64,000 nucleotides of DNA from the IMG/VR virus record IMGVR_UViG_3300030397_000824, positions 37,047-101,046 of that record; one strand, written 5' to 3'. The stretch is from a virus. The translations under genes were made by a program, and so were the position numbers. The notes under the pieces are model-generated. The model did no database searches, had not been told where the DNA came from, and saw only the letters and a list, made by a program, of their open reading frames with translations. Within the stretch, counting starts at the first letter, position 1; the number at the start of each line of letters is the position of its first letter. Shown in pieces: positions 3,570 through 56,030 of the stretch.

Positions 3570-3598
3570 AACTCTTCCTCACATAATTTCCTGACGAA

Positions 3599-12754: not shown

Positions 12755-13066
12755 TTAAAATTCCCCGATGTTGTCCATATTCGTTGTTTTTCCGGTAGCC
12801 TTATTAATCATATCCTCCTTTTTCTTATTGGCCCTATTGATGACATCGGATAGGAGTTTGATTTCTCGATTGGGGTAACGCTTCAATGTCTCGTACTGAA
12901 TTGCTCCCCCATATGCGAGGGATATTTCAGCAAGAATTGCTAGCGTACTCTCCTTTTCTTCGCGCCTTGCTTCGATTTCTGCGAGGGCTTCTTCGGCTGT
13001 GTTGAATCCCCCGCTTGCCCAAAAAGCCGGTTGGCGTCCAACTCTAGCCTGAATGTTTGTTCCCCA
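12755..13066 (-). CDS. Start-less -1 frame ORF (gp51/gpT-like), probable frameshift extension of gp26-like gene
   Basis: Open from TAA at 13067-13069 to TAA at 12755; ...AEEALAEIEARREEKESTLAILAEISLAYGGAIQYETLKRYPNREIKLLSDVINRANKKKEDM...; no ATG/GTG/TTG before the helical region. Confidence 0.65.
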   Translation of the reverse strand, partial: WGTNIQARVGRQPAFWASGGFNTAEEALAEIEARREEKESTLAILAEISLAYGGAIQYETLKRYPNREIKLLSDVINRANKKKEDMINKATGKTTNMDNIGEF

Positions 13067-13959
13067 TTACACTCCTCACAATTGTATTTGATATCGGAGA
13101 ATGAGACGATCCATTCAGAAATCTCATTGATCTTTTCGGTTAGACCTTCGGCTTCATCGGTTGGTAGATTCAATAACCACTCACGAATATATTCTTGTCC
13201 GTCAACAGCTTTACCATCCGAACGCTCAACCGAATGGATTGAGGCTTCAAGGTTGTCCAGCGCTGTATCGGATGCCATGTCGATAATACGCGAGTAATTT
13301 TTGATCGCCTCTTCGTTGACAACCATCTCGTCGAGTTTCATATCACCCATGGAGTCAATCTTTTTGTTCCGAGCTAAGCTCTCTTTCATCTGTTCGATGA
13401 CTCGCTTGTACGACGGTGGGCGCAGATTTACTTTTTGTGGTACCCGTTTCAGGCGGTAAGTGAACAACTCTTCCGCAAGGTCATCTTGGATAACCTCATA
13501 CCGAAGAATGTGTTCATTGATATCGAGTACCAAGGTGTTTTCATGTCCACATCGACCGTTGAGTTCTTCACCATCCTCAACTGCCTCACCCTCTTCTGGT
13601 TCTCTGGGTACCAAATTTTGACAAACGTGCTTCAGTTCGAGTTTGGGTCCATAGCTCACTAAACGCGAGGCCAGTAGGATAGCTTCCAAATCCAACTCAC
13701 ACAACTCTGAAGCCAATAATACATCAGGGCAAATACCTTTCATCATTCTGGGAATGGCTTCACCGGAAAGCAGCAACCACGGATCACGATAGTTTTGTTC
13801 TGCGAGAATGCCGAGAACCCCGACCGGCAAATCCAGCGGATCAGCTTCGGCAGAGATAACATTCTCGGGGTACCAACGACCACCAGTCGGTAATGCAACC
13901 GAAACGGACGGAAAAGCATCATTCTCGATTAGGTCTTGGATCAATGGGTTGTTTGACAT
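12940..13959 (-). CDS. gp26: Baseplate hub assembly chaperone (T4 gp26-like)
   Basis: LPTGGRWYP, DLEAILLASRLVSYG, Cys pairs, C-terminal CxxC; upstream of tape measure. Confidence 0.8.
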   Translation of the reverse strand: MSNNPLIQDLIENDAFPSVSVALPTGGRWYPENVISAEADPLDLPVGVLGILAEQNYRDPWLLLSGEAIPRMMKGICPDVLLASELCELDLEAILLASRLVSYGPKLELKHVCQNLVPREPEEGEAVEDGEELNGRCGHENTLVLDINEHILRYEVIQDDLAEELFTYRLKRVPQKVNLRPPSYKRVIEQMKESLARNKKIDSMGDMKLDEMVVNEEAIKNYSRIIDMASDTALDNLEASIHSVERSDGKAVDGQEYIREWLLNLPTDEAEGLTEKINEISEWIVSFSDIKYNCEECNGEQTFRLELDANRLFGQAGDSTQPKKPSQKSKQGAKKRRVR

Positions 13960-14022: not shown

Positions 14023-14052
14023 AAGATGGTTCTATTTGGTGATAAAGTCAAG
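14023..14052 (-). promoter_or_regulatory. RpoH-type promoter candidate
   Basis: cTTGACT-N17-CATCTT. Confidence 0.5.
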
Positions 14053-16531: not shown

Positions 16532-16561
16532 AATATAGGACCGATGAGGTAGAATATCTAG
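16532..16561 (-). promoter_or_regulatory. RpoH-type promoter candidate (variant)
   Basis: cTAGATA-N17-TATATT upstream of thyX. Confidence 0.35.
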
Positions 16562-17924: not shown

Positions 17925-17954
17925 AAGATAATCAGTATCGGATGTTATTTCAAG
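17925..17954 (-). promoter_or_regulatory. RpoH/sigma70-type promoter
   Basis: cTTGAAA-N17-TATCTT upstream of dNMP kinase. Confidence 0.6.
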
Positions 17955-19961: not shown

Positions 19962-20124
19962 GTGGCAACACTTCCATCAGGATTTTCGGTTCCCGCTTCG
20001 GGGAGATTCCCGCTGCGAATTCCTCAGCCTTGTTGAATGTAGTAAAGGTACGAGAGGTGGCAAGAGCGTACTTCCCCTTGACACCATCTTTGGTGTCCAT
20101 ACGACAGATAACAAAATAGTTCAT
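19951..20124 (-). CDS. Hypothetical protein
   Basis: ATG 20124 in ATGA overlap. Confidence 0.55.
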   Translation of the reverse strand: MNYFVICRMDTKDGVKGKYALATSRTFTTFNKAEEFAAGISPKREPKILMEVLPLED

Positions 20125-20996: not shown

Positions 20997-21025
20997 ATAT
21001 TAGCATATTACGAAGGCGTTGTCAA
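20997..21025 (-). promoter_or_regulatory. sigma70-type promoter
   Basis: TTGACA-N17-TAATAT with extended TG. Confidence 0.75.
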
Positions 21026-25115: not shown

Positions 25116-25144
25116 ACTATAACGCCAACGAGATTAAAAATCAA
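25116..25144 (-). promoter_or_regulatory. sigma70-type promoter (leaderless geometry)
   Basis: TTGATT-N17-TATAGT-N6-ATG. Confidence 0.6.
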
Positions 25145-25815
25145 CCGTATCTTTTCTTACCTTTGGTAAAATGTCTTTTGTGGAATACGCTATCAAATCC
25201 CTCGACATCTTTAACGCCGTATTGAATTTCGGTTGCACCCTCATCATCCACTTCAACCTCGGTTTTTCTGATTCCATCCTTCTCATCCGACATGGCCTTT
25301 CGTCGCGCCGTAGCTGTTTCCTCATTCTCCACCTGTCGGGTGTTGGATGGGTCGAAACCATACTGTTCCAGAATGTCATCACGAATCCGGCGTACTTTCT
25401 TTTCCTTGTCGAGTGTGGTCAGAAAGGAGTGGGTAACGATTTGCGTCATATAGCCAAACGGGTTGGCTGATTTTTCTGGTTTGAATTTCAGTGTTCCGTT
25501 GAGGAGTGATAGAGTAGCCTCAGACTTCATGTCCTCGATGTACGTGTATCCACGCCAGTTGGCACGTTGTGCGTAACGATCTACTAACATCATAATCATC
25601 TTCACCAACTCGGGCGTCATGCACTCGGCTGCGGTGGGCTCAGTGTTCTTAGCTTTCTTTTTGGCCGCTTCCCAGTTTTCCTTTGACAAGCTGATATGCT
25701 CAAGAAGCCTCTTGTTGTTCAAATAATTCTGTTTTCTACGACGCTTAACCGGTTTTTTAGTTGACGCATCTTTGGCGTCTGCTGCCTTTTTGGCAGTTTT
25801 TGTTGTGGTTGCCAA
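25141..25815 (-). CDS. gp55: Late transcription sigma factor (T4 gp55-like)
   Basis: NYLNNK.LL, NWRGYTYIEDM, F.PEKS.NPF.Y.TQI; TTG start with GGGAG. Confidence 0.92.
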   Translation of the reverse strand: MATTTKTAKKAADAKDASTKKPVKRRRKQNYLNNKRLLEHISLSKENWEAAKKKAKNTEPTAAECMTPELVKMIMMLVDRYAQRANWRGYTYIEDMKSEATLSLLNGTLKFKPEKSANPFGYMTQIVTHSFLTTLDKEKKVRRIRDDILEQYGFDPSNTRQVENEETATARRKAMSDEKDGIRKTEVEVDDEGATEIQYGVKDVEGFDSVFHKRHFTKGKKRYG

Positions 25816-25864
25816 TTTACTCCCCTCGGTTGCCTTGAGATTTCCTCAAGAAAGTTATATCTTC

Positions 25865-25894
25865 AAGATGTTCACTTTCTTGAAGAAAGTCAAG
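25865..25894 (-). promoter_or_regulatory. RpoH-type promoter candidate for gp55
   Basis: cTTGACT-N17-CATCTT, with palindrome in spacer. Confidence 0.55.
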
Positions 25895-25904
25895 GCGATT
25901 TTAT

Positions 25905-25938: not shown

Positions 25939-26814
25939 ATGGCTGAACAGCAACCACAAATCGACGATTTCCGTCCTTCCTTCGCGCTAGAGCATGTAGC
26001 AGCGAAATTGGAACCCTTTGACCTTCTGCGTTTGGGCCTCTCGTTGGGTGGTGCTGACCAACGCTCGGATACTTCCGATGCCCTTCAGGGTGGTGCGGTC
26101 TCGAACATACCCAATGCAGGCCAGCGGGCCGCTGGTACAGTTGATGCCGCAAACTCACAACTAAACTCACTGAATACTCATGCCCTTGCGCCGATATTCT
26201 TAACCAACGGTTTAGTATTTCCATACAATCCTTCTATTTCGGAAGGAATCTCGGTGAAATACGATACTATGGAACTGACTCATACCAATGAATCATTTCA
26301 TGTGTATAGCGGAACCGACAACGTTCGAATAAACATTTCGGATGCCAAGTGGACATGTGATACTTTTGACAACGCGGTGTATGCGTTGTCCGCATTACAC
26401 TTTTTCCGGACATACAGTCATATGGACTTCGGTGCAGGTCGAACAGGTCGTCCACCAAGCCCGATGTGGTTTTCTGCATACGGGAACTATGCGTACCACC
26501 GTGTACCCGTTTTGATGGAAAAGGCCGACTGGTCATTCCCGGCTGATGTTGACTATGTTGGTATCCCGGAATTCGGTACGCCAGAATATCGTCAACGTGT
26601 TCTTCAGTACGAGAGAAACGAAAGCACCCAGTATACTTGGTTGCCGATGGTTTTCACCATTTCATCCATCTCGTTGGTTGTTCAACACTCGCCGTCGTTC
26701 TGGTCCAACTGGAATCTTGACATGTACCGTTCCGGTGAACTGCTACGACAGCGGAAGAATTTCCACATAACAAATCCAGCATTGACATCGCGTAATGGCG
26801 GGGGCAGACCATAA
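25939..26814 (+). CDS. Baseplate/tail tube initiator-like protein
   Basis: VFPYNP.I, LTHTN, ALHFFR, PP...FSAYG, FP.DVDYV; precedes gp53-like gene. Confidence 0.65.
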   Translation: MAEQQPQIDDFRPSFALEHVAAKLEPFDLLRLGLSLGGADQRSDTSDALQGGAVSNIPNAGQRAAGTVDAANSQLNSLNTHALAPIFLTNGLVFPYNPSISEGISVKYDTMELTHTNESFHVYSGTDNVRINISDAKWTCDTFDNAVYALSALHFFRTYSHMDFGAGRTGRPPSPMWFSAYGNYAYHRVPVLMEKADWSFPADVDYVGIPEFGTPEYRQRVLQYERNESTQYTWLPMVFTISSISLVVQHSPSFWSNWNLDMYRSGELLRQRKNFHITNPALTSRNGGGRP

Positions 26815-29741: not shown

Positions 29742-32288
29742 ATGCCAAACTTTGACGATGGCATCAGTAAGGCGGTAAGAAGTAGCTGGTCTGGTGGTCG
29801 AAATACTCCAAATGCTGAATCTCCATTACCGGGATTTTATACCGGTATTGTCATGGACGATGCTGATGATCAGCGCATGGGTCAGGTATGGGTTTATATT
29901 CCGGGAATATCACAACGACGAATTCGTCAGCAACAAGCCCTTCCCACATATGGTGGTACCGCCCCGGATAGAAACAACAGCACCGGCAGTATAAAATGGG
30001 ATCAAGATTTGCGTATGGGGTGGATTCAGTGTTCTCCTCTGTTACCGTTTTTTGGCGGTGATGATTATCGTGTATCCCGAAGCCCGGGTGGTGATTATAG
30101 AAACGCTGGAAATGGTGACGTAAACGCATATGGCTTTTGGGCTCAACCTCGCATCGGTGATGAAGTGGGTATTCTGTTTGCCCATGGCGATTCTGCGAAG
30201 GGTTTTTGGATCGGGTGCATGCCTAAGTATGCCCGTAACTTCATGGTTCCGGGTTCTCCCGGGCGTCCACCAGAAGACCTTGACGACAAAATCGACGAAG
30301 CTAGCGAGAACGATCCCAACCCGTCGCTCCACAAGGTCACCAAACAAATTAAACAGGAAGCTTCGCAGACGGTTGATCCGTCGTTGGTTCCTGCAATGGA
30401 TAAAGTCCGTCGATTGAGTTCGAACAAGGCGATCCCCGTTGAACGGGAATTGATTGATGTACTCGTCTCCCCAGAGTTCGCACAAAATGTACAAAAGGCT
30501 GGACTACTCACTGACCCGCTGCGTGGTGCTGGTACATCGAGTGCCCGCCGTGAAAGTCCGTCATACGTGTACGGATTTAAATCGGCTGGTTGGAATTTTG
30601 ATAGTGAAAAAGCAAACCTGAACACCGCTAGCGGTGAACGCGTTCAATTTGGTGCTTCTGGTGAAGATAACGTATACAAGGATATCAATACCACTGGTCA
30701 TCAACTAACCTTTGATGATCATCCTGACCACCAAGGCGTTCGGCTCCGTACTTCTGCGGGTTCACAATTATACTTTGCGGATCGGTGTAACGAACCGTTC
30801 ATTTACATTTCCACTGCTCAGGGAAATGTTTGGCTGGAATTTATTGACAACGGGAAGATCAACATATTTGCTGAGGATAGCGTTTCTGTCCACTCGCGTA
30901 TGGATATCAACATGACTGCGGACCGTGATATTAACATCGACGCACAGCGTGATTTGAATCTTCAAGTACGACGAAACACAAACTTCACATTGAAGGGAGA
31001 AAACAATTGGGAGTTTGGACGTAACGACTTGCCTCCAGAAGACCTCAAATACAATTCGAGCCCAGACTGGGGAACAGGAACTCCACAGGACACCCTTATC
31101 CACAATTATGGAAACGTTGACTGGGTGGTCGATGACGCATTCAGTATGAGTATCGGGTCCGGTCTTGATTTGAGTTCTGGAACAACTGCAAACATAGAAT
31201 CTGGTTCTGACCTTAACATCAATGCCGCTTCCGATATTAATGTTGAAGCTGGCTCGGCAATGAATCTGCTTGCTGGTGGAGCGGGCGCACTCACTGCAAC
31301 AACATTAGACTTTTTTGCTACCAGCGGGGACTTGATTGCAACCGCCGACGAAATTCACTTCAATGGACCGCAAGCAGCAACCGCTGGATCGGCAGGAAGT
31401 GCATCAACAGCGTCAGCGGCATCTCTGCCATCGACTGGACGCACGTTCCGTGTTCCAACGAATCAGGAGATTATGGATTGTGAGGAACCACCAGCCGTAT
31501 TCGATACTTTGGAAGGTATTGTTGTTCCACAACACCAGCCATGGCCGGAGCGTTGTAAATCGACGGCGGGTACACGTGGTTTCGTTGACGAAGCTCCCGT
31601 GGATGTGTCCCGTGCTGGTTCCACAACCGAGACATCATTAGCGCCCCTTAACTTGCCGGAGGAAACACGATTCCGTCAAGGACAGCCGTTCTCGACTTCG
31701 AATCTCACCGAAGCTCCCTCATACAATGACGTGGCTCCACGCGGAACATTTGCCGCATGTGACACCTACACCACATCAGACAAGGGTGTTGAATTCTTGC
31801 ATCGGCAGGAAGGATTCCGAACGAAGGCATATCCGGATGCAGATGGATATTCCATCGGATATGGACACTTCATCAAGGTGGGTGATACTATCAATGGTGA
31901 TACGATCAATGGGCGTGTCACTCAGGAAGATATTAATTTCTTGAAGCGTACAAAGGGCCAACTAAACATCACGAAGGAAGAGGCGGACCGTCTATTCCGA
32001 TTGGATTTGGTTAAGTTCGAAGAAGATATCTGCTTGGAAGTTAGTACCAATATCACGCAGGGTCAGTTCGATGCTATGGTCAGTTATGCGTACAATGGTG
32101 GTCGTGGTGCGTTGCGTAGAATGATACAGCGAAGCAATTTCAATACCGGGGATTTCTCTTTGGTTCCGCAGGCATGGATGAGGTTGTCAACTTGCAGTCG
32201 ATGCCCTGCTTCCCAACGGCCACGAATCGAAGCAGCACTTCGAAATCGTCGCCGTCAGGAATTGGAACTATTGTTCGCTCAGGTTTAA
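29742..32288 (+). CDS. gp5: Baseplate central spike with C-terminal GH24 lysozyme (gp5-like)
   Basis: OB-fold YTGIVMDDAD..G.VWVYIP, P.IGDEV; TTGHQLTFDD; beta-helix-like repeats; EGFRTKAYPD..GYSIGYGH, ITQGQFDAMVS..YN.G. Confidence 0.9.
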   Translation: MPNFDDGISKAVRSSWSGGRNTPNAESPLPGFYTGIVMDDADDQRMGQVWVYIPGISQRRIRQQQALPTYGGTAPDRNNSTGSIKWDQDLRMGWIQCSPLLPFFGGDDYRVSRSPGGDYRNAGNGDVNAYGFWAQPRIGDEVGILFAHGDSAKGFWIGCMPKYARNFMVPGSPGRPPEDLDDKIDEASENDPNPSLHKVTKQIKQEASQTVDPSLVPAMDKVRRLSSNKAIPVERELIDVLVSPEFAQNVQKAGLLTDPLRGAGTSSARRESPSYVYGFKSAGWNFDSEKANLNTASGERVQFGASGEDNVYKDINTTGHQLTFDDHPDHQGVRLRTSAGSQLYFADRCNEPFIYISTAQGNVWLEFIDNGKINIFAEDSVSVHSRMDINMTADRDINIDAQRDLNLQVRRNTNFTLKGENNWEFGRNDLPPEDLKYNSSPDWGTGTPQDTLIHNYGNVDWVVDDAFSMSIGSGLDLSSGTTANIESGSDLNINAASDINVEAGSAMNLLAGGAGALTATTLDFFATSGDLIATADEIHFNGPQAATAGSAGSASTASAASLPSTGRTFRVPTNQEIMDCEEPPAVFDTLEGIVVPQHQPWPERCKSTAGTRGFVDEAPVDVSRAGSTTETSLAPLNLPEETRFRQGQPFSTSNLTEAPSYNDVAPRGTFAACDTYTTSDKGVEFLHRQEGFRTKAYPDADGYSIGYGHFIKVGDTINGDTINGRVTQEDINFLKRTKGQLNITKEEADRLFRLDLVKFEEDICLEVSTNITQGQFDAMVSYAYNGGRGALRRMIQRSNFNTGDFSLVPQAWMRLSTCSRCPASQRPRIEAALRNRRRQELELLFAQV

Positions 32289-33259
32289 TCGCAGAACAGG
32301 TCTTCGGTATGAATCCGACGCTCGCCCGCGAGGCGATGAAGCTCTTCGGTCATCTTTCGCATAGCTTCGATTCGGACTTGGCGAATTCGTTCCTTGGAAA
32401 CTGAAAACTGTTCACCAAGATCATCGAGCGTTCTTTGGTTTTCTTTTTCCGTAAGAATCTGAGCTACGAAGACAGTTTTCTCTCGATGACTCAATACCTG
32501 CATAGCTTCCGTAACCAGTTTTTTATGAAAGGTAATTGAATCACCAATCATGGCGGACTCTTCGGCATCATTATCCGGGTCTTCGAGTGTTTCTCCAAGA
32601 GTGGATAATTCGGACTCACCATCGGAACTGCTTGCGACTGGATGATCTAACGACTCGTAAGGGCGTTGAAACATTTGAAACATCATCATGACATCGGTCT
32701 CGTCCACATTATGTGCTTCGGCCAATTCCTGAACAATATCATTGGTAATCTTGAATGTGCCGTGAGCCTGAAGCTCGATAGCAATCAACTTCCGCATCGA
32801 ATAGAATAACTTCTTTTTGTTGTGGTTCGTACAGAACTGAACGTAAAAGAAATGACGCATACCGAATCCCTGCATCATACCTTTGACACAGGTCTTGGCA
32901 TAAGATGCAAAACGAACATTATCATGTTCCGATGGTTTGAATCGACGGGCAGCTTCCGAAAGGGCCATCAACCCCTCGGATAGAAGTTCCTCATCCTCAA
33001 CGCGATAATTGGCTACTTCTTTCATGGCACGACGAATCGTCGGTCCGTAAGCCATAAGGATTCGGGTTAGGTAACGATTATCGTCACCACCAGTGAATCG
33101 GGTTATTTTATCGTTCTTTGGGTCCATGAAAGCTTTGAACCCCTTTGGGTTACTATCCCACCAAGCGCGGAATAAAGCCTTTTCCTCCTCAGCAGTGAGT
33201 AGTGGTAGATATCCTTTAACGAATTGTTTTGCGTCGCTGGTTTTTATTGCATCACGCAT
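32285..33259 (-). CDS. rpoH: RpoH (sigma32)-like sigma factor
   Basis: L..EEE..L, EG.M.L..A..RF.P, RFASYA, RpoH-box-like TNHNKKKLFYSMRK, SLD.P, TLDDLGEQF.VSKERIRQ. Confidence 0.88.
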   Translation of the reverse strand: MRDAIKTSDAKQFVKGYLPLLTAEEEKALFRAWWDSNPKGFKAFMDPKNDKITRFTGGDDNRYLTRILMAYGPTIRRAMKEVANYRVEDEELLSEGLMALSEAARRFKPSEHDNVRFASYAKTCVKGMMQGFGMRHFFYVQFCTNHNKKKLFYSMRKLIAIELQAHGTFKITNDIVQELAEAHNVDETDVMMMFQMFQRPYESLDHPVASSSDGESELSTLGETLEDPDNDAEESAMIGDSITFHKKLVTEAMQVLSHREKTVFVAQILTEKENQRTLDDLGEQFSVSKERIRQVRIEAMRKMTEELHRLAGERRIHTEDLFCD

Positions 33260-33309
33260 TATTTTCTCCAGTTCTCTTTGGTTTGTATTTTCCGTAACGG
33301 ATTGGATGG

Positions 33310-33315
33310 TAAATA
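33310..33315 (+). promoter_or_regulatory. Late promoter
   Basis: GTAAATAG upstream of gp25. Confidence 0.55.
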
Positions 33316-33351
33316 GTCTTCATGCTGGTCAAAAAGCATGGCGACCGAATC

Positions 33352-33381
33352 AATATGGTTATAATTTAGTGGATTTTCAAG
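33352..33381 (-). promoter_or_regulatory. sigma32-type promoter of rpoH
   Basis: CTTGAAA-N14-AACCATAT, close to CTTGAAA/CCCCATNT consensus. Confidence 0.65.
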
Positions 33382-33382
33382 T

Positions 33383-33754
33383 ATGGTAGCACCTCTGTAT
33401 CGTGGTTTTTCAACTGTTGCGAATGATGGAATTGACACCCGTCTGTTCGACGTGGAGTTAGTTAAGCAGGATTTACTCAACCACTTTAATACTCGTGTTG
33501 GTGAGCGTGTGGCTAGACCGTCATTTGGTTCCATCATTCATGACCTGTTATTCGACCTCTTTGATTCTCGTACCGAGGGTCTGGTGATCGCAGACGCTCA
33601 GCGTATTTTCAGCGAAGACCCCCGGGTAGTACCACTGGAAGTCAACGTTGACATAAACCCCGATGAGCATCAGATTACGTTAGATGCTACCTTACAAATG
33701 GTAGAATTCGATATGAATACCAATTTCCACGCTATATTCGAGGCTAGAGTCTAA
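33383..33754 (+). CDS. gp25: Baseplate wedge subunit gp25
   Basis: DLLNHFNTR.GER..RP.FGS.I.DLLF, DPRV. Confidence 0.92.
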   Translation: MVAPLYRGFSTVANDGIDTRLFDVELVKQDLLNHFNTRVGERVARPSFGSIIHDLLFDLFDSRTEGLVIADAQRIFSEDPRVVPLEVNVDINPDEHQITLDATLQMVEFDMNTNFHAIFEARV

Positions 33755-38334: not shown

Positions 38335-38757
38335 TCATCGTTCAAATGTTCTTTTACGGTCACCACCCTTCTCGCAGGGGTGGTGACCGTATTTGTAAAA
38401 ATACTTCTTTGCACGAACGAACTTCCCTTTAACCCAGAATCCAAACTCTCTTTTTTCTGGTCCGCAAAGTAAAATAGTCCAACACGGTTCGTCGATGACG
38501 ACAGTGTGGCGATGGAGTGCCGGACGGTAGGCGAAAGACCATCGAGGGCGGAATACGGTTTCATCTTTACCGAGATCGGTGTAGCTACCTGAGATTACCC
38601 AACTGATAAACCACCATGGGTGGTCGTGTTTGTAGAGATCATCATCAGAGGAGAACCAATGATGTATGCGGATGGAAAAGAAGTAAAAATCAAAAACCCA
38701 ACGCTCCATGTAGGGGCATTCGGTTAAACCAAGTTGTTCTTTCTATGTAAATTTCAT
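38335..38757 (-). pseudogene. Cupin-like (HDHPW family) gene with in-frame TAG at codon 5; readthrough candidate or pseudogene
   Basis: AGGA RBS + ATG AAA TTT ACA TAG AAA GAA... in frame with MERW...HDHPW...HRH ORF; downstream ATG 38709 lacks an RBS. Confidence 0.6.
38355..38395 (+). terminator. 14-bp hairpin, probable terminator of gp25-gp6 operon
   Basis: TACGGTCACCACCC/GGGTGGTGACCGTA then TTTG, 20 nt after gp6 stop; lies inside antisense cupin CDS. Confidence 0.6.
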
Positions 38758-39034: not shown

Positions 39035-39063
39035 ATTATGGTTTCACTGATTCAAAATGTCAA
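39035..39063 (-). promoter_or_regulatory. Promoter of the tRNA-like RNA
   Basis: TTGACA-N17-CATAAT, 16 nt upstream of G1. Confidence 0.75.
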
Positions 39064-56000: not shown

Positions 56001-56030
56001 CTTGACACGTCTCCGGAGTGGAGTTATCTT
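56001..56030 (+). promoter_or_regulatory. RpoH/sigma70-type promoter of modification cluster
   Basis: cTTGACA-N17-TATCTT. Confidence 0.6.

Follow-up and report, generated by a model that had tools for sequence, protein, structure and literature searches.

The RpoH-like gene and its neighbors

The subject of this study is a gene for an RpoH-like (sigma-32-like) sigma factor, and a class of promoters that it may serve, in a 64,000-nucleotide stretch of viral DNA (the window) that forms part of a 103-kb IMG/VR contig (IMGVR_UViG_3300030397_000824; G000), estimated to be 28% complete. The cultured relatives nearest to this contig are jumbo T4-like phages of the Rak2/PA5oct/Phosso type, with 30-49% protein identity, and the clade is one of T4-like (Rak2-related) phages of about 350-390 kb. 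An earlier interpretation made from the letters alone (the sequence-only reading) had placed a full RpoH-like gene antisense inside the baseplate operon. This description holds: the open reading frame (ORF) of 324 residues is intact, and it is flanked by a convergent gp5-like hub/lysozyme gene and a divergent gp25-like baseplate wedge gene (Table 1). The head-to-head arrangement with gp25 recurs in all family members examined in viral contigs, down to 28% identity, and about 36 metagenomic homologs of the protein, at 35-69% identity, are all intact. These intact homologs, together with the constant divergence from gp25, indicate long-term selection on the sigma gene.

The short region between the two divergent genes is densely occupied. 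When six sigma-gp25 intergenic regions are aligned, the elements that do not vary are CAT/CTTGA, the -10 core ATAT of the sigma promoter and, on the opposite strand, the gp25 late promoter. The sigma promoter is conserved in four of the relatives (L002-L005) and its ATAT core is invariant in six, while the late-promoter block of gp25, GACTATTTACCATCCA, is conserved in five of six. A hairpin separates the gp25 late promoter from the -10 box of the sigma gene; it would be present in both divergent mRNA leaders, and its stem is retained with other sequence in L005 and G002. A generic scan of the 25-40 kb part of the window for sigma70 promoters and terminators, with counts that were not above those of shuffles, found no terminator between gp5 and gp25 and none after the gene at 38335. 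Given that the gp25 late promoter lies within the sigma leader and that no terminator was found between gp5 and gp25, late transcription should cross the sigma gene and its promoter in the antisense direction. This layout, with the late promoter inside the sigma leader, is kept throughout the sigma family.

Identity and descent of the sigma factor

The protein passes the Pfam cut-offs for Sigma70_r2 (25.8 against 24) and Sigma70_r4 (31.3 against 24.1), with a weak region 3 match of 15.2 that lies under the cut-off of 25.3. Its three top NCBIfam models are all sigma-32 models, at 120-124 bits, and other sigma types reach at most 58 bits; the scores are nonetheless under the NCBI cut-offs for RpoH itself (TIGR02392, 122.1 versus 323.1; PRK06596, 124.1 versus 241; PRK07500, 120 versus 315). 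PHROGs assigns the protein to a phage sigma family. The solved structure closest to it by sequence is E. coli RpoH (sigma32; PDB 8HKC), which is also the top match (E 3e-10) in a fold search with an AlphaFold (AF2) model. The model is all-helical, with a predicted local distance difference test score of 73 and a disordered linker at residues 200-239; about 300 columns of it align with the chains of sigma32, sigmaS and sigmaA, at template modeling scores of 0.35-0.5 owing to the placement of the domains. The domain order reads as 1.2-2-3-4, with region 3 the weakly matched one.

In a maximum-likelihood tree, 14 phage sigma proteins form a single clade (100/100) on a long stem (branch 2.23), and RpoH plus this phage clade is split from RpoD, RpoS and FliA at 99/100. 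The kinship with RpoH that the sequence-only reading had proposed is thereby supported at the level of the group; the tree does not order the phage clade relative to the alphaproteobacterial and the E. coli (gammaproteobacterial) RpoH, and no bacterial group in it encloses the phage clade. A phage-only clade on a long stem within the RpoH group argues for an old phage-specific branch rather than recent capture from a host. A megablast search of the sigma locus against GenBank phages gave no match, and tblastn with the protein gave distant sigma genes alone (23-25% identity), among them the "sigma-32-like" gene of Salicola phage SCTP-2. The closest cellular relatives in a contig scan were all alphaproteobacterial RpoH, in a search whose patterns favored alphaproteobacteria. 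On the whole the gene is supported as an RpoH-type sigma gene. In the model set out below, its product would be a working alternative sigma factor of RpoH descent, long resident in one phage clade.

A different RpoH is carried by another viral contig, L011 (IMGVR_UViG_3300024991_000141). It is nested within Rhizobiales-type RpoH in the tree, and on that placement it is a separate, recent capture of a host rpoH gene by a virus or prophage.

A conserved promoter class

The sequence-only reading had matched the sigma gene with a promoter motif at six sites, upstream of the sigma gene, gp55, a gp26-like gene, a deoxynucleoside monophosphate (dNMP) kinase gene, a modification cluster and, as a variant, thyX. 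All six 30-mers were recovered at the coordinates and on the strands quoted, and five of them fit one class, here called class M. The thyX site was rejected as a member, as it lacks TTGA and is not conserved in G002, a 360-kb relative (91% complete) whose sigma protein is 45% identical.

The exact pattern searched for was CTTGAM-N18-YATMTT, which occurs five times in the window against 0.05 expected, a count reached in none of 100 shuffles. This test is post hoc, the pattern having been derived from the same sites, and so the independent evidence of related records was relied on: three such records outside the definition of the pattern hold 6, 8 and 6 matches, versus 0 for the reversed control. 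All five exact sites in the window are intergenic and lie on the strand of the gene that follows, 17-90 nt ahead of a ribosome-binding site and start codon, after correction of three starts. The longest-ORF starts of the dNMP kinase gene, the first cluster gene and thyX fall inside or beside their own promoters, and the true starts are likely to be ATG 17900 (rather than TTG 17912), ATG 56054 (rather than GTG 56018) and ATG 16502 (rather than TTG 16529), each with a GGAG-type ribosome-binding site upstream. With the starts so corrected, the distance from the sites to good ribosome-binding sites is 17-25 nt.

Every exact site has CTTGA, A at -11, T at -10 and T at -8; the -35 region continues as CTTGAA in two and as CTTGAC in three. 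The likeness to the sigma32 consensus that had been pointed out is partial: the ATnT core of the -10 element is there, but the CC/CCCC part is unmatched. One or two Cs stand upstream of the -10 box in three of the five sites, never four, and the same bases also fit sigma70.

In relatives whose sigma proteins are 45-68% identical, all five positions are kept while the spacers have diverged. G001, with a sigma protein 68% identical, shares synteny with the window from position 20121 on and retains the sites at gp55, the sigma gene and the cluster with different spacers. The cluster promoter has orthologs in the same place, TTGACT-N17-TATATT in G001 and TTGAAA-N17-TATATT in G002, and the dNMP kinase promoter corresponds to TTGATA-N17-TATCTT in G002. 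The -10 boxes of G002 are CATGTT (gp55), TATCTT (dNMP kinase), TAGCTT (hub), TATATT (cluster) and TATATA (sigma), and those of gp55 in L002 and L008 are GATATA and CATTTT. All 17 orthologous class M promoters have A at -11 and T at -8; T is found at -10 in 16 and at -7 in 15, and a pyrimidine (C or T) at -12 in 16, with G in the remaining one. Sites with T at -8 precede genes for primase, ribonucleotide reductase, dNMP kinase, a radical S-adenosylmethionine protein, gp55 and the sigma factor in G002.

Table 1. Genes, promoters and other elements discussed in the text (window coordinates unless a genome is named)
Feature	Position	Strand	Sequence or remark
TTTC-N5-GAAA copies	3587, 4931, 21027, 25841, 25876; G000:C1:31118; G001 753, 5396, 5431, 19616, 74726		Palindrome
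Class M promoter upstream of gp26-like hub gene (12940-13959)	14023..14052	-	G002: TTGAAA-N17-TAGCTT
thyX "variant"	16532..16561	-	CTAGAT...TATATT; membership of class M not supported
Class M promoter of dNMP kinase gene (ATG 17900)	17925..17954	-	CTTGAAA, N17, TATCTT
Class A promoter (example)	20997..21025	-	TTGACA-N17-(TGC)TAATAT; G002 ortholog TGGTATAAT
gp55-like late sigma gene	25141..25815	-	PHROG 12791 and 234, "late sigma"
Mirror-image M-like site	25835..25863	+	TTGAGA-N17-TATCTT; pairs with gp55 promoter
Class M promoter of gp55	25865..25894	-	CTTGACT, N17, CATCTT; orthologous sites in G001, L002, G002, L008
gp5-like hub/lysozyme gene	29742..32288	+	Convergent with sigma gene; 4-nt overlap at gp5-like stop
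RpoH-like sigma gene	32285..33259	-	324 aa; ATG start
gp25-like late promoter	33308..33318	+	GGTAAATAGTC; inside sigma leader, opposite strand
Hairpin	33321..33340		CATGCTGGTCAAAAAGCATG; in sigma 5' leader, opposite strand is gp25 leader
Class M promoter of sigma gene	33352..33381	-	CTTGAAA (-35 TTGAAA 33380-33375), N17, CATATT (33357-33352)
gp25-like baseplate wedge gene	33383..33754	+	Divergent from sigma gene
Class A-like promoter of tRNA-shaped RNA	39035..39063	-	TTGACA-N17-CATAAT; minus-strand promoter nearest upstream of sigma gene
Class M promoter of tailoring-enzyme (modification) cluster (first ATG 56054)	56001..56030	+	CTTGACA, N17, TATCTT
Phage hsp20 (small heat-shock protein) gene	G000:C1:35879-36412; G002:173216-173728	- (G000)	G000 copy about 650-1170 nt left of window

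Early and late classes, and relatives without the sigma gene

Two other promoter classes can be recognized in these genomes. The late motif, TAAATA, occurs upstream of genes 13 times in the window against 0.64 expected, and 49 times in G002 against 4.9. The early class (class A) is TTGACA-N17-(TGn)TAtAAT. Class M is set apart from both by T at -8, by the lack of TGn and by a -35 hexamer that is mostly TTGACT or TTGAAA. These differences can be seen among 62 intergenic, gene-oriented TTGAnn-N17-nAnnnT sites taken from G000-G002, where TGn is found in 0 of 31 sites with T at -8 versus 9 of the 31 others (p=0.002) and the -35 is mainly TTGACT/TTGAAA in the first group and TTGACA in the second (p=0.04), p-values that are inflated since the counts include orthologous promoters of related genomes. 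The same two-block test on matches in coding sequence shows a weak trend only. The genes downstream also differ, with a median length of 235 aa after the T-8 sites versus 133 aa after the others.

Two sister phages, G006 and G007 (loci L278-L312), provide a further comparison. Both are near-complete (93-94%), with gp25 38-39% identical, and a search for a Sigma70_r4 gene found none in either. TTGACT-N17-TATAAT or TGTTATAAT precedes their gp55 genes, and TAAAAT or TAGTAT the dNMP kinase genes. Their promoters are strikingly uniform: genome-wide, 35 of their 61 intergenic TTGAnn-N17 two-block sites have exact TATAAT. T at -8 is found in 6 of the 61, whereas in the genomes that carry the sigma gene it is found in 31 of 62 (p=1e-6). 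The G+C content is 38-41% in these sigma-less phages versus 47% in the sigma-bearing ones. In the 91%-complete G002, the RpoH-like protein is the only full-length sigma factor. T4's own middle mode is also missing, for MotA and AsiA (PF09114, PF09010) are absent in G000, G002 and G003, while the T4 control was positive (E 3e-63 and 2e-43). Together these comparisons support the view that class M is genuine and conserved, that it differs from both the TTGACA-TGnTATAAT early class and the TAAATA late class, and that the sigma-less sisters lack it.

Residues that read and melt DNA

The RpoH box was tested as Q(R/K)(K/R)LFFNLR(K/R) between regions 2.4 and 3.1. In the alignment, KKKLFYSMRK of the phage sigma pairs with the box QRKLFFNLRK, and a box-like KK(K/R)LF(Y/F)xxR(K/R), with the K, L, F and R conserved, is found throughout the phage clade and is lacking in RpoD and RpoS. 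Region 4.2 reads SKERIRQ, compared to TRERIRQ in sigma70 and SAERVRQ in E. coli sigma32, so that the -35 reader is conserved and sigma70-like.

The part of the protein that faces the -10 region is another matter. The open-complex structure of sigma32 marks H107, W108, K130 and T128 as functional residues, with K130 reading the "CC" of the extended -10 element (PMC10216364). The wedge H107-W108 (HW/WW) has become T123-C124 in the phage protein, and K130 is replaced by H146; only T128 is kept, as T144. This phage and the relatives closest to it have Cys in place of the melting Trp (W108 of sigma32, W434 of sigma70). Within the phage clade as a whole, the inner members have VC or TC and the outer members xW, with the Trp kept. 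The equivalent of E458 is K, region 2.3-3.0 has strongly diverged, and 25 residues are inserted after region 1.2. The protein fits the motif in that the conserved -35 reader goes with a -35 element common to class A, while the diverged -10 and extended -10 readers go with a different -10 element that lacks TGn or CC.

A palindrome in the gp55 promoter

The gp55 promoter faces a mirror-image site on the plus strand, and the two form a palindrome of about 62 nt (window 25834-25895; G001:5385-5450; G002:141619-141679) whose -10 boxes are 1-3 nt apart. Relatives whose sigma is as little as 45% identical keep the layout, with the mirror -10 box decayed in G001 (TACTTA). Judging from this spacing, RNA polymerase could not occupy both sites together. 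The structural gene at 25939, beyond the mirror site, also has a late promoter, TATAAATAC, as does the gp26-like hub gene (CTAAATAC).

A smaller palindrome, TTTC-N5-GAAA (consensus about TTTCYTSANGAAA), lies in the spacer of the gp55 promoter pair, beside the -35 of the early promoter at 20997 and directly after the -10 of the promoter at 3597. Six of seven copies in G000 and all five in G001 are intergenic, where 0.43 and 0.31 are expected. It is a candidate operator of a DNA-binding protein.

A possible sigma cascade and its alternatives

These observations can be assembled into the following model. Host RNA polymerase would start with the sigma gene, at the promoter CTTGAAA-N17-CATATT. The sigma protein so made would bind host core polymerase and drive, or strongly boost, a "middle" class TTGA(C/A/T)n-N17-yATnTt (A at -11, T at -10, T at -8, no TGn), with targets that would include the dNMP kinase gene here (primase and ribonucleotide reductase genes in G002), the tailoring cluster, the hub gene, the sigma gene itself and gp55. 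The gp55 protein would then turn on the TAAATA late promoters, and late transcription from the gp25 promoter, running antisense through the sigma promoter, would probably shut the sigma gene off. We infer the reader of class M, the order in time, the feedback loop and the final shut-off by late transcription. That the phage sigma reads or boosts class M we consider an evenly balanced proposition. The larger proposal, that a re-tooled phage branch of RpoH acts as a dedicated middle sigma in place of MotA/AsiA, within a self-limiting cascade from host sigma70 to the sigma-32-like factor to gp55, with the Trp to Cys change, the loss of the extended -10 reader, the reading of TTGAmn-N17-yATnTt and late antisense silencing all as parts of it, is less likely than not.

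Several points weigh against the model. The sigma gene's own promoter is of class M, and some host holoenzyme must therefore start there, so that the class cannot be exclusive to the phage sigma. With TTGA, a 17-bp spacer, A at -11 and usually T at -7, class M is a legal sigma70 promoter, as the sequence-only reading had noted for the TATCTT copies. Class M resembles both the S. meliloti sigma70 consensus CTTGAC-N17-CTATAT (PMC2873474) and the RpoH1/RpoH2 consensus CTTGAA/CTTGCC-N15-16-CCTATAT/CCTATCT (PMC4843759), both of them alphaproteobacterial. In a study of transcription start sites in S. meliloti, the RpoH and RpoD motifs were so alike that many predictions overlap (PMC3616915). Host sigma70 or host RpoH could accordingly read class M, especially in an alphaproteobacterial host. 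The Trp to Cys change could weaken open-complex formation, the TTTC-N5-GAAA element within the gp55 promoter points to a further DNA-binding regulator, and the sigma-less relatives of lower G+C content may infect hosts whose sigma70 prefers TATAAT. The optimistic p-values noted above belong on the same side.

The most serious alternative is that class M consists of moderate-strength host sigma70 promoters, perhaps tuned by the TTTC-N5-GAAA regulator, with no need of the phage sigma; we regard this as possible but on the unlikely side. Class M may then mirror the -10 preference of an alphaproteobacterial-type host, and the phage sigma would serve different targets or a partly shared set. The geometry and key bases of class M, its likeness to the S. 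meliloti consensus and the need for a host-readable sigma promoter all favor such a reading, as do the alphaproteobacterial RpoH relatives (in the pattern-biased search), the promoter enrichment of the palindrome and the difference in G+C content, and probably in host, of the sigma-less relatives. On the other hand, two co-varying promoter types within the same phage count against it, as does a T at -8 that stays invariant among orthologs with no drift, and A at -7 in two orthologs (TATATA and GATATA) is poor for sigma70. It also gives no visible promoter set to the conserved sigma factor, which is the only full-length one.

A second alternative, which we consider improbable, is that the phage sigma mainly steers host polymerase to the heat-shock regulon (groESL, dnaK, proteases), supplying chaperones for the assembly of a giant virion while evading the DnaK/FtsH control of host RpoH, and that the phage promoters are read by host sigma70. 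RpoH ancestry and the RpoH box agree with this, and the 25-residue insertion falls between regions 1.2 and 2.1, at the position of what we take to be the homeostatic-control segment of E. coli sigma-32. A phage Cpn10/GroES gene was searched for and not found, which would also suit a reliance on host chaperones. However, the -10-reading residues of sigma-32 have been altered (HW to TC, K130 to H), a very long branch parts the phage clade from cellular RpoH, and the phage hsp20 gene has a promoter of another kind (see below) rather than CCCCATnT. That the phage sigma is a decoy that no longer initiates, and instead occupies core polymerase or titrates host RpoH regulators, is very improbable: the melting Trp is lost and the scores are under every curated sigma cut-off except those of the Pfam domains, but the roughly 36 homologs conserve the two DNA-reading domains as well as the residues that read the -35 element, the Trp is kept in outer family members, and sigma28-type factors work without WW (PMC10216364).

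Relation to known systems

The phage sigma shares with bacterial RpoH (E. coli, 8HKC; alphaproteobacterial RpoH1/RpoH2) the domain order, the RpoH-box-like segment and the T128 equivalent, along with its best hidden Markov model, sequence and fold matches and its grouping in the tree. It differs in scoring 122-124 bits where the cut-offs are 241-323, in forming a phage-only long-branch clade, and in the changes of H107-W108 to T-C and K130 to H and the insertion after region 1.2. At the promoter level, CTTGAA/CTTGAC and an ATnT core with T at -8 are common to class M and sigma-32 promoters, and ATCT is also found in the S. meliloti RpoH2 consensus (PMC4843759), whereas class M lacks the CC/CCCC upstream of -10 that belongs to the sigma-32 promoter (CTTGAAA-N13-14-CCCCATnT).

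Middle transcription in T4, in which MotA acts together with the remodeling of sigma70 by AsiA, would be similar in that a class lies between sigma70 early and gp55 late promoters and covers nucleotide-metabolism genes and gene 55. It differs in that the phage clade studied here has no MotA or AsiA, the TTGA -35 element is kept with no MotA box, and the proposed agent is a replacement sigma rather than an appropriator of sigma70. The late system, with a gp55 homolog and TAAATA before structural genes, is of the T4 type. T4-like cyanophages also have gp55 and TAAATA-type late promoters; they are not known to have MotA, AsiA or a full-length sigma. Bacillus phage SPO1 uses a sigma cascade of gp28 followed by gp33/34, and the phage described here would resemble it in having successive phage sigma factors that redirect host core polymerase, as proposed from sequence. 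Among T4-like group 2 jumbo phages, a minimal gp55-type sigma is accompanied by a fuller sigma of cellular type (Iyer et al. 2021, PMC7824862). In contrast to SPO1 and the group 2 phages, the fuller sigma here is RpoH-derived rather than RpoD-like; it is tied to a specific promoter class that is conserved, and its gene holds a constant antisense place in the baseplate operon. The sigma-less jumbo relatives G006 and G007 are alike in gp55, TAAATA-type late promoters and the lack of MotA and AsiA, and differ in having TATAAT-type promoters before gp55 and the dNMP kinase gene and no full-length sigma, and the PA5oct study reported only TTGAC/TATAATA promoters. A literature search for promoters assigned to a phage RpoH-like sigma found no such paper.

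T4 is the textbook case of temporal control, but most T4-like phages do without its middle step, in which MotA/AsiA appropriate sigma70. If the cascade is real, an RpoH-derived sigma with a promoter class that includes the gp55 promoter would be a concrete, testable answer to how middle genes are timed in one large uncultured clade, and a heat-shock sigma lineage would have been domesticated by viruses. The sigma-less sisters, with TATAAT before the same genes, are natural controls, and the unusual melting-wedge residues of the phage sigma should be of interest for studies of promoter opening.

Other features

The phage hsp20 gene was considered as a carrier of a class M or CCCCATnT promoter and rejected. 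Its promoter is instead a conserved hybrid, TTGATT-N17-TAAATA, with the late motif at -10. The preferred positions of TTGA ahead of the 97 intergenic TAAATA sites of three genomes are 17 nt (6 sites) and 19 nt (7 sites) upstream.

The gp55 frame of some relatives is much longer than gp55 itself (L010:18380-19720; G002:141703-143187), with an insert that has intein-like junctions (C...TPGHKF in L010), and the thyX gene of G002 (near 155211) has a ...VHN|S junction. The inserts in the late sigma (gp55) and thyX genes are probably inteins.

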